This document shows, piece by piece, positions 37,501 to 40,500 of a DNA stretch of 42,522 nucleotides. Under the pieces are notes generated by a model. It made no database searches and had not been told where the DNA came from. It worked only from the letters and a program-made list of their open reading frames with translations. Every line of letters starts with the position of its first letter. The stretch's first letter is position 1. The translations under genes and the position numbers were made by a program. Source of the DNA: Rhizaria sp. SCN 62-66 (lineage: Eukaryota); the NCBI GenBank assembly GCA_001724265.1, contig MEDY01000367.1, positions 1 to 42,522 on the forward strand, in the 5' to 3' direction.

Positions 37501-40500
37501 TAAGACCAATACGCCAAAGCAGATGTGTTGAATGTAGAATCCACGAACGCTTGAGATTGGGCAGCACTACTGAGAGAAAAGGCAGCCCCGTTGCGTAAAG
37601 CAGTTGGTGGCTCACTTGCGAGTGCAGCAAAAGCGATACCGTCACTATATAAGTTTGTCGACTGGTAGAGTGCTGCGTTCTTGATGGTCGCAACAGCAGA
37701 CTCATTTAGAGTGCACGTCTTAACCGCGACCATAGCGTCGGTGTTGCTAGCAAGCATGAGAATGCCCACTGTAACGCGGCGATCCTCGCTCTCAGTGACA
37801 TTAGACTGCGAAATCATCACTGTGCGAGAAGAAAGATTTAAAGGACAATGAAACCTGGTATCAGTGCCAATGTCATATATTGAATCGTCCTGGCTCACTG
37901 GCTGATCCAGAAGCACGCGCGGCTCGACCAGCGTCGCAACGTTATTTTCGTCAACAGTAAGTGAGCCAAGAGTGATGCCTGTACTGAGAGTCCTGAAACC
38001 GCTGCGACCAGCCGTGGGGAGTGTTTGTGTCAAAAATGCGGCTCCAGCAGACATCGTGGGCAAAGCCGGAACCGAGAGTGCAGCGGCATTGAACATCGAA
38101 ACGTCTCGATAATGAATGTTATTTTTGCTCACGCGCGTAAAAACTGTATCATATGATGAAGTTGTGAACGAGACTTCACGATAAGCTATAGGCACCTTGG
38201 GATACCCGACGGGTCCGCAACCAACTTTAGAGCACTCCAAAGCAGCCCTCGTTACCCAACCGCGACCGAACACGCACTCGTACTTTGCAAGGAGAGTTGA
38301 TGAGCCCGGCTCCACAACGCCTGTCGATGGGTTCAGGCTCAATTTCGGCACATAGCATTTAGTGAAGGCAAGCTTACCAACAGCATGATGCGCAGACAGA
38401 TCCTAAGCATATGTGATGCCGGTGTCCGGATCTGGAGCAAGCCCTTGTCCAAACGGGGTCAAAAAGTGCGGACAGATATAAGGCACGCAGGACGGAGGTG
38501 CCGAAGACCAGAGACTTGTTGATAAGCACTTAACAGCGGCGCTGGCGACAGTGCTGAGGACAAAGTTCTCCGGACACGTGAATGCAACAATTGTGTCAAC
38601 AGTGTAACCGGAACCGTATGTGTCGTTAACCATCATGCCTTTGCGAACAGTAAGCGTTGGCAGCGGAGACGCATCTGTGCCCTTCATACCCTGAAACGGG
38701 CTCGGGCACTGTACAGGAATACAGGGCGTCGTCGTCGACCATCCGTCGGTGCGGCAGACAATGTCTTGTACAGGCACGTAGCGCTCAGAAACGCAAGTAG
38801 GATATGCGCGCGCGGTTTCAAGCGTGAGTTGTGTGGCGCCAAAGAGCGACGAGTAGTAAATCGCAGCGATCGGGGAGAGAAGGGGCAGCGCACCGCAGTC
38901 GTAGCGCGGCACGCACTCGACAGAAGCCACACTCCATTGATAACCCGTCGAGACGGAAGCAGGAACCGCGACCGAGCGCGTCATAAACGACGCAGTGCGT
39001 ACATTAGCAGAAGCAACGATACCTGCGCTGTGACGACCAATACTATAGTCGTCAGTGGCAGCAAGGTCGTCGAGAGAAGCGTTCAGAGCAACAGTCGTAC
39101 GTGTACATACAATTGGTGTTGAAGTGGAAATCTTGTACGACAGCGACGAGCACATCGGCATAACGTACGAACCAGGAATGCGGTTGTCTGAATATGAAAC
39201 TGTGCCGCCAGTAATGGCTGGAAACGCCGAACACTGTGTCGTAGGCTCACACTGCAAGGGGGTCGTGCTCATGAGAGCCTGTACAGTCATACGCACGGAG
39301 GACGAGGTTGACGAAGCTGTGGCAACGGGCGGAGCGGTCGAGACGGAGCCAGCGCTCGGATCGTACGGAGTCCAGCCCGCCGCGGTGCAGTTCAGCGTGC
39401 TCACGGTCCCCGAAATAGGCGCGAACCAAGTCCGGCAGCCCAGAGCAGCAAGCGTGCCGATGGGGTGCGACACGCGCTGGGCGTCGTATGTCGCTGTAGT
39501 CACCATTTGCGTGCCCACAAAAGGCACGACCAACGGCAGCGGCGGGCAGTTCGCGGTGAACAGACAGACGTCAGTCATTGGAACTGCGACGGTAACACCA
39601 GCGTCCCGCAGCCACGTGCCGTTGGCGCTGCACGTCAAAGTCTGCCGTCCGAGCGCAGATGAATCAGTGACGGACGTGTTGGTGCGGCAGGAGTACGTCG
39701 CACGCGCACCGAAGAGGTATCCGGTGGTAGGCATGTACGAGTACGCAGCGCCGCTCTCTCCGGGCGCGCGCACCGTCACAGTCATCGTCTGCGGCGTCGC
39801 GGGTGGCGCGTCGCAGTAGACGAGCGAGCACACGGGGGCGGTGCCATACCACCTGCTGTTGACAGCGCACTCGACGACGGTGAAGTTGGTCTTGTAGCCC
39901 GGCGGACATGAGAGCGTGAGCACCGAACGGAACTCAGGGTACGGGACGCCGGTCTGGAAGGAGCCTACGGCGAAAGGAACAACTGTGCTGATGGTGCCAT
40001 TCAGCAGGCAGTGCTCACCAAGGTCGCACTGGGTGTATGGCAGATTGAACATGTTCGTCGAACCTGATGAAACGGGCATCGAGGGGTCGAACAAAGAGCC
40101 AGCAGGGAGAACATGGTTTGTTGCAACGACCTCACCGGAAGCGTTGACTTCGTACACTGTCTCTGTGACGTGTGGACAGTGAATAGGTACGCACAGCGGG
40201 ATCACACCGTACCACAGGCCATCTGTCAAGCACTGCAGCGTGCTCAGCGTGCCGGCAGGCGCTAAGGGGCAAACCACAGGGTCGCTAGGGCCGCTCAGTG
40301 AAAGCGACGGGGAGGCCTCGTAACCGCGTGCGCAAATCAAGTGCAGAGAGACTGTGGCTTCCGGGTACACACGCGTCGTGTTCTCGGGAAGCGCCTGTCT
40401 CGAAACGATAAAGCGCGATTTGAGCTCCGGGAGCAAGTCCACGCAGTGCGGGATGACACACTGGAACGCGTTGTCCACAAGCGGGCCAGACAAGACGAGC

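Follow-up and report, generated by a model that had tools for sequence, protein, structure and literature searches.

A candidate nuclear code in Rhizaria sp. SCN 62-66 with UAG as a rare sense codon, most likely for glutamate

To our knowledge, reassignments of UAA and UAG nearly always go together. In the rhizarian exLh UAG is described as leucine and in Iotanema spirale as glutamine, with UAA kept in its old role (PMC5304391; this and the other papers are cited for the excerpts on which each comparison draws). Rhizaria sp. SCN 62-66 resembles both organisms in that UAG appears as sense while UAA and UGA stop. It differs in three respects: UAG is a minor codon in Iotanema (about 8% of Gln codons) but rarer still here (<1% of Glu codons), the cognate tRNA is only predicted in the account of Iotanema and exLh and was found here, and the residue looks like glutamate here (PMC5304391). 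Phyllopharyngean ciliates likewise reassigned UAG alone, with one or two CUA tRNAs from the cognate family, but their UAG is read as leucine or glutamine, not glutamate (PMC11687900).

Glutamate as the meaning of UAG is described in other lineages. Oligohymenophorea sp. PL0344 reads UAG as glutamate through Glu-derived CUA tRNAs, but it also reads UAA as lysine, stops at UGA only, and has ten CUA tRNA genes against one here (PMC10553269). A tRNA-Glu(CUA) decodes UAG in Blastocrithidia, where UAR is glutamate and UGA tryptophan (PMC12153298), and in the peritrichs, where UAR is glutamate (PMC11687900); in both, unlike here, UAA shares the meaning of UAG (PMC12153298, PMC11687900). In-frame UAG makes up 1.4-1.7% of codons in Blastocrithidia (PMC12153298), compared with 0.03% in this genome. 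No code with UAG as glutamate and both UAA and UGA kept was found in the open-access papers searched, and a nuclear code with UAA and UGA as stops and UAG most likely as glutamate is apparently an unreported variant.

The giant gene of the window

The window, the whole stretch of DNA analyzed, is the 42,522-nucleotide contig MEDY01000367.1 (C367). One long minus-strand frame ran in from the contig end (42521) with TAG codons at 38405 and 32111; past a frame change in a CAA run the frame resumed, with TAG codons at 26821 and 23554, and ended at TAA 22597 (Table 1). The change of frame is probably an assembly slip because the paralogs have no such shift. With its TAG codons read through, the protein contained seven Pfam Sushi stretches, an REJ domain, and a GPS-like motif scoring below the cut-off. 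This arrangement resembles the REJ/polycystin-like receptors with Sushi repeats, which share the Sushi repeats, REJ domain, GPS-like motif, and membrane segments. Unlike in those receptors, no PLAT or channel domain was scored by Pfam in the C-terminal part, and the gene belongs to an expanded family of very long genes.

Table 1 Features of the giant gene and of the eRF1 gene
Feature	Position	Strand	Remark
Giant Sushi-repeat/REJ/GPS-like/membrane protein gene, >6,600 codons	22595..42521	-	5' end beyond contig
Sushi-like module, 81 residues, 4 Cys + Trp, TAG as codon 24	38232..38474	-	no Pfam score
In-frame TAG 1, variable loop	38403..38405	-	paralogs W, E, S, N, S
REJ domain, best stretch	34368..35129	-	PF02010, E 2.4e-11
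In-frame TAG 2	32109..32111	-	paralogs E, Q, E, E, E
GPS-like motif, then hydrophobic stretch	31530..31619	-	20.5 bits, cut-off 22.5
(CAA)n run, ~55 units, one extra A shifts frame	30248..30413	-	paralogs are single frames
In-frame TAG 3	26819..26821	-	paralogs Q in 5/5
In-frame TAG 4, low-complexity tail	23552..23554	-	
TAA, probable true stop	22595..22597	-	RLQ(K/R)L motif shared with 4/5 paralogs, which end soon after it
In-frame TAG of eRF1	L085:4464-4466 (contig C63)	-	GC3-rich stretch

The original prediction placed the first TAG inside a single Sushi/CCP module. Read on the minus strand from 38474 to 38232, the frame is CPHFLTPFGQGLAPDPDTGITYA*DLSAHHAVGKLAFTKC...YECVFGRGWVTRAALEC, with cysteines at 38474, 38357, 38276, and 38234, the tryptophan at 38258, and the TAG at 38405-38403. 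The predicted order, with the first cysteine upstream of the TAG and the other three and the tryptophan downstream, was borne out by these positions; all five residues were invariant in the six-way paralog alignment, as were the P, G, Q, and P that precede the TAG. The Cys/Trp pattern of a Sushi module was thus present, but the family assignment was not recovered: the TAG module was below the Pfam Sushi (PF00084) cut-off throughout (0/6 sequences, the window copy and 5/5 paralogs), no Pfam family scored it in any of the six, and a Pfam Sushi score was obtained only for the module preceding it. Structure predictions were weak (mean pLDDT 32.9, and 55.5 for the six-sequence model), and a fold search with the weak model returned no match at E<=0.001, the best E being 0.16 and CCP/SCR rows appearing only weakly. 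The module is therefore called Sushi-like here by its Cys/Trp pattern only. It had also been singled out as the strongest evidence for decoding, which it is not, since the TAG falls within a variable loop.

The further proposal that the ORFs form one protein with the TAG decoded was supported by stop-free paralogs, by the lack of a fitting intron, and by a synonymous excess downstream. Five paralogs matched the TAG region at 38-66% identity, and stop-free frames crossed the site in C8 (7,872 codons), C2 (6,160), and C232 (5,724). The nearest GT allowing in-frame removal of the TAG was at 38486; an in-frame intron ending at the TAG does not fit because a start at or upstream of 38486 would delete invariant residues. 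Strains were compared over 31500-42522 in 4 of 14 runs. In run X4, which comes from another study, one contig covering 35143-40536 carried 21 differences, none of them in the TAG codon. Among the 40 of 61 strain differences that were listed, 18 synonymous stood against 5 non-synonymous downstream of the TAG, and 9 against 8 upstream. The RNA run X6 yielded scattered contigs flanking the TAG on either side and none over it, which is neutral either way.

Programmed readthrough specific to this site was considered and rejected: lone in-frame TAG codons also occurred in kinases, eRF1, and paralogs, the stop was not conserved (sense codons in 5/5 paralogs), and the contexts of the TAG sites differed. 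Decoding appears to be due to a genome-wide reassignment with its own tRNA, wider than a site-specific feature.

The Sushi-repeat surface protein family was spread over about 35 contigs, with open frames of up to 9,238 codons and at least two subfamilies that differ in their C-terminal membrane parts; no relative turned up when metagenomes were scanned with the REJ alignment. At the contig end, residues 1-60 (window 42100-42521) were nearly identical to paralog C233, likewise at a contig end, which may reflect recent gene conversion or assembly collapse. The plus strand of the window carried a protein kinase gene (1112-1831), a gene for an acidic-tailed multi-pass membrane protein that matched no Pfam family significantly (2964-5855), and a gene of roughly 4,600 codons for an ABCC-type transporter, without in-frame TAG (6900-20870). 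The last showed very long low-complexity inserts in and around its nucleotide-binding domains and apparently two introns.

The organism and TAG across its genome

Where the sequencing runs containing the stretch carried a label, they were metagenomes from wastewater, bioreactors, sludge, fuel cells, or biofilms; because the organism turns up repeatedly in wastewater and bioreactor data, material may be obtainable. About ten dynein heavy chain genes were present, which suggests a flagellated stage. The best-scoring named full-length hit for one dynein was the cercozoan Mataza (54%). The ubiquitin of the genome (L175, L178, L179) was unusually divergent and starts MSMQIF, a start that may resemble the junction insertion of rhizarians; the stretches read contained no assembled polyubiquitin junction. 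We offer Cercozoa as a weak guess at the lineage.

From the 34.9 Mb assembly about 0.9 Mb was read, giving fewer than 25 informative TAG sites, with several TAG sites lacking an alignment column. In-frame TAG was observed inside conserved domains of unrelated genes, namely kinases, eRF1, a UCH-family protease, and paralogs. Among 142 kinase-domain matches, nine had a lone TAG (five inside exons, four as intron ends) and five had TAA or TGA, the latter in intron-like stretches. Searches with DEAD and kinesin domains each turned up a single TAG, in both cases at what appears to be an intron end, and the ABC, RCC1, and WD40 matches contained no in-frame stops.

When stops that follow coding-like sequence were classified by what comes after them, TAG led from coding into coding sequence in 19 cases and into noncoding sequence in two, with three unclear; for TAA and TGA the counts were four, 36, and eight (Fisher p 5e-10 for TAG versus TAA/TGA, unclear cases left out). 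One of the two TAG codons followed by noncoding sequence lay in an intron, and the other at a place where paralogs continue. In this small sample of stops after coding-like sequence, none of the TAG codons stood at a clear gene end. We consider it very probable that TAG is a sense codon genome-wide and that UAA and UGA stay stops.

The codon is rare, at 22 of 71,005 codons (0.03%); with 3,548 Glu codons in the set, TAG amounts to <1% of the Glu codons. At such a frequency gene callers cut proteins at TAG, and similar codes may be missed in other protists; one gene call here (P0122) stopped one residue short of the TAG. The dynein loci contained one TAG in 36,011 codons, compared with 25 in 85,675 elsewhere, and no informative TAG site; other rare codons fell alike in them (TTA 8 versus 314).

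A family of kinases with Sel1-like repeats (L073 on contig C148, L074, L075) was rich in TAG. The kinase gene on C148 had an in-frame TAA in a polyQ stretch through which two paralogs run, a result at odds with an uncomplicated picture; this gene may be broken, and its three TAG codons would then be uninformative.

A tRNA with CUA anticodon and an altered eRF1

A tRNA with CUA anticodon was found by pattern search on contig C84, which also carries kinase and kinesin genes. Its Rfam score is 58 bits, and a T run comes after it. In its acceptor stem the first five pairs are those of both of the organism's own tRNA-Glu, its T-stem is that of the own tRNA-Glu(CUC), and among 25 other own tRNA types tRNA-Glu(CUC) was the closest, at 64% identity, compared with 45% and 40% for the two tRNA-Gln. 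The sole phage match was a tRNA-Glu. ARAGORN labeled it as pyrrolysine, a label that follows the anticodon, whereas Rfam placed it in the ordinary tRNA family and its body is Glu-like. By these sequence features, the CUA tRNA is most readily read as a derivative of tRNA-Glu. The first pattern had missed tRNA-Glu(CUC). A wider pattern for CUA and UUA tRNAs, covering intronless tRNAs, revealed no second CUA tRNA: it gave 39 matches against 39 in the control, and the 14 candidates inspected included neither a UUA nor a CUA tRNA, with about eight TTA-type matches outside that set.

The only eRF1 gene found in the genome itself contains an in-frame TAG, so that TAG decoding is needed by the release factor gene. 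A JGI contig, possibly from the same data, carries this TAG unchanged. The alignment column of the codon held E in 106, D in 10, and V in one of 117 homologs, the closest homolog being the one with V. The GTS motif, found in 117/117 homologs, was GSS here, and TASNIKS, found in 109/117, was KASNIKS, a form shared with one homolog at 84% identity. Thr32 of eRF1 contacts the G of UAG, and the eRF1 of Iotanema is also changed at this residue (PMC5304391, excerpt). We infer that the changes found here may blind eRF1 to UAG. With the tRNA and the altered eRF1 both in hand, the mechanism is directly testable.

We read the other PF03463 match in the genome as Pelota. An eRF1 motif scan of metagenomes returned 21 loci, including one identical contig; we read 17 of the others as archaeal-type and the remaining three as a different eukaryotic or giant-virus type. 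In the metagenome eRF1 genes L226, L238, and L235, K replaces the Thr of TASNIKS; both L226 and L238 carry an in-frame TGA at the same place, and the contig of L235, 403 kb long and dense in genes, resembles a giant virus.

Autoregulation of eRF1 has reportedly been seen in plants. Speculatively, the TAG in the eRF1 gene would make release-factor output depend on how UAG is read, and a feedback loop could result.

We propose that UAG would be a rare sense codon everywhere in the nuclear code, read mainly as glutamate, with UAA and UGA staying stops. The single tRNA-Glu-derived CUA tRNA would be expressed, charged with glutamate, and decode UAG, while eRF1, altered at residues that read the third base, would ignore it and let it pass. 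The window gene would then encode one giant Sushi/REJ membrane protein in which the TAG at 38405 is an ordinary codon of a variable loop.

The residue inserted at UAG and competing explanations

Besides the Glu-type body of the CUA tRNA, several conserved positions pointed to glutamate. At the TAG in a kinase hinge, of the 218 alignment rows, drawn from 149 proteins, 209 had E and none Q, the query itself carrying E. A homolog search for this hinge kinase found nothing, and the solved chains nearest to it, representatives searched with E at the site, had S or Q there. Pfam favored E over Q at four of seven scored TAG sites (+2.4, +0.8, +0.6, and +0.3 bits), scored both equally at two, and put E 0.1 lower at one, an eighth site being unscored. 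E was found in 4/5 paralogs at window site 32111 and in single close paralogs at two further sites. Conversely, Q was invariant at three TAG sites, window 26821 (5/5 paralogs) and two in C212 (the four and five closest paralogs); a ubiquitin-like copy and a tandem duplicate each had TAG opposite Q, and several TAG codons lay in polyQ. The polyQ context was rejected as proof of meaning, as it shows the origin of TAG and not its decoding.

In paralog pairs, TAG faced E in 3/11 cases and Q in 3/11. As controls, Gln codons faced Q in 62-63% and E in 5%, and Glu codons faced E in 58-64% and Q in 3-4%. Facing E in 3/11 differs from the 5% of a Gln codon (p 0.015), facing Q in 3/11 from the 4% of an ordinary Glu codon (p 0.008), and facing Q in 3/11 also from the 62-63% of Gln codons (p 0.018). 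The split is therefore unlike that of an ordinary codon for either Glu or Gln (p 0.008-0.02), but it fits the rare codon AGG, which faced R in 38% and K in 18%. For AGG, as for a Glu-coding TAG, the step from the common synonyms is a transversion and the step from a codon of a similar residue a transition. By this parallel, the TAG codons that face Q would be CAG>TAG transitions. Under a glutamine reading the sites facing E have no such mutational excuse, and glutamate is therefore favored. On balance, we judge it probable, with appreciable room for doubt, that UAG is read mainly as glutamate.

The split could also mean that UAG is ambiguous, with the Glu-derived CUA tRNA charged by both GluRS and GlnRS to give a mixture of glutamate and glutamine. 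The genome contains three loci of the GluRS/GlnRS class. Mixed charging would keep UAG rare and tolerated at Q sites as well as E sites, would account for TAG facing E and Q equally, unlike an ordinary codon of either kind, and would suit the presence of strongly conserved columns of both sorts. In E. coli, moreover, C36 strongly determines Glu identity, and U35 leads several amber suppressors to accept glutamine (PMC9976931, in the excerpt). These identity rules are, however, bacterial, the mutation-driven pattern seen with AGG already explains the split, and the Glu-derived CUA tRNAs of Blastocrithidia and the ciliate PL0344 are assigned to glutamate in the cited excerpts (PMC12153298, PMC10553269). 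We regard this mixture as unlikely. A broader scenario, in which the code change is caught half-way, with one Glu-derived CUA tRNA charged with both amino acids, UAG rare and ambiguous, and an eRF1 feedback loop possible, is doubtful in our view.

A plain glutamine meaning, as in Iotanema, would invoke either a missed tRNA-Gln(CUA) or a Glu-like tRNA charged with glutamine. In its favor are the three paralog columns with invariant Gln, the Q faced in the ubiquitin-like copy and in the duplicate, and the polyQ settings; glutamine is also the commonest reassignment according to the excerpted survey (PMC11687900). Against it stand the Glu type of the only CUA tRNA found, the hinge and eRF1 columns with E in 209/218 and 106/117, and the low share of TAG codons facing Q (3/11, where Gln codons reach 62-63%). 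We consider it rather improbable, and glutamate remains the preferred reading.

Alternatively, UAG might still be partly a stop, with the CUA tRNA acting as a suppressor that competes with eRF1 and the in-frame TAG codons being tolerated, leaky nonsense alleles. The low count (22/71,005 codons), the one tRNA copy, and the lone TAG in 36,011 dynein codons would agree with this. However, other rare codons drop equally in the dyneins (TTA 8 versus 314), TAG stood at no clear gene end, and the giant gene, with its four TAG codons, is under purifying selection downstream of the first. This makes a leaky stop very unlikely and leaves a sense codon, mainly glutamate, as the reading we retain. The TAG might also be an error of sequencing, the end of an intron, an edited position, or a pseudogene nonsense mutation, as could be argued from the TGG at the site in the closest paralog, the frame shift of the giant gene in its CAA run, and the likeness of TAG|G to the acceptor of real introns, but such origins are scarcely credible given the same TAG in a run of another study, the lack of a fitting in-frame intron, the synonymous excess, the TAG in eRF1 together with a cognate tRNA, and residues facing TAG that are not mostly Trp.

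As a minor observation, one ORF (L177, C681:1512-4727) combined a tandem duplication with a ubiquitin copy containing TAG, and its C-terminal part resembled a fibre-chaperone domain; this ORF is possibly a virus-like element.
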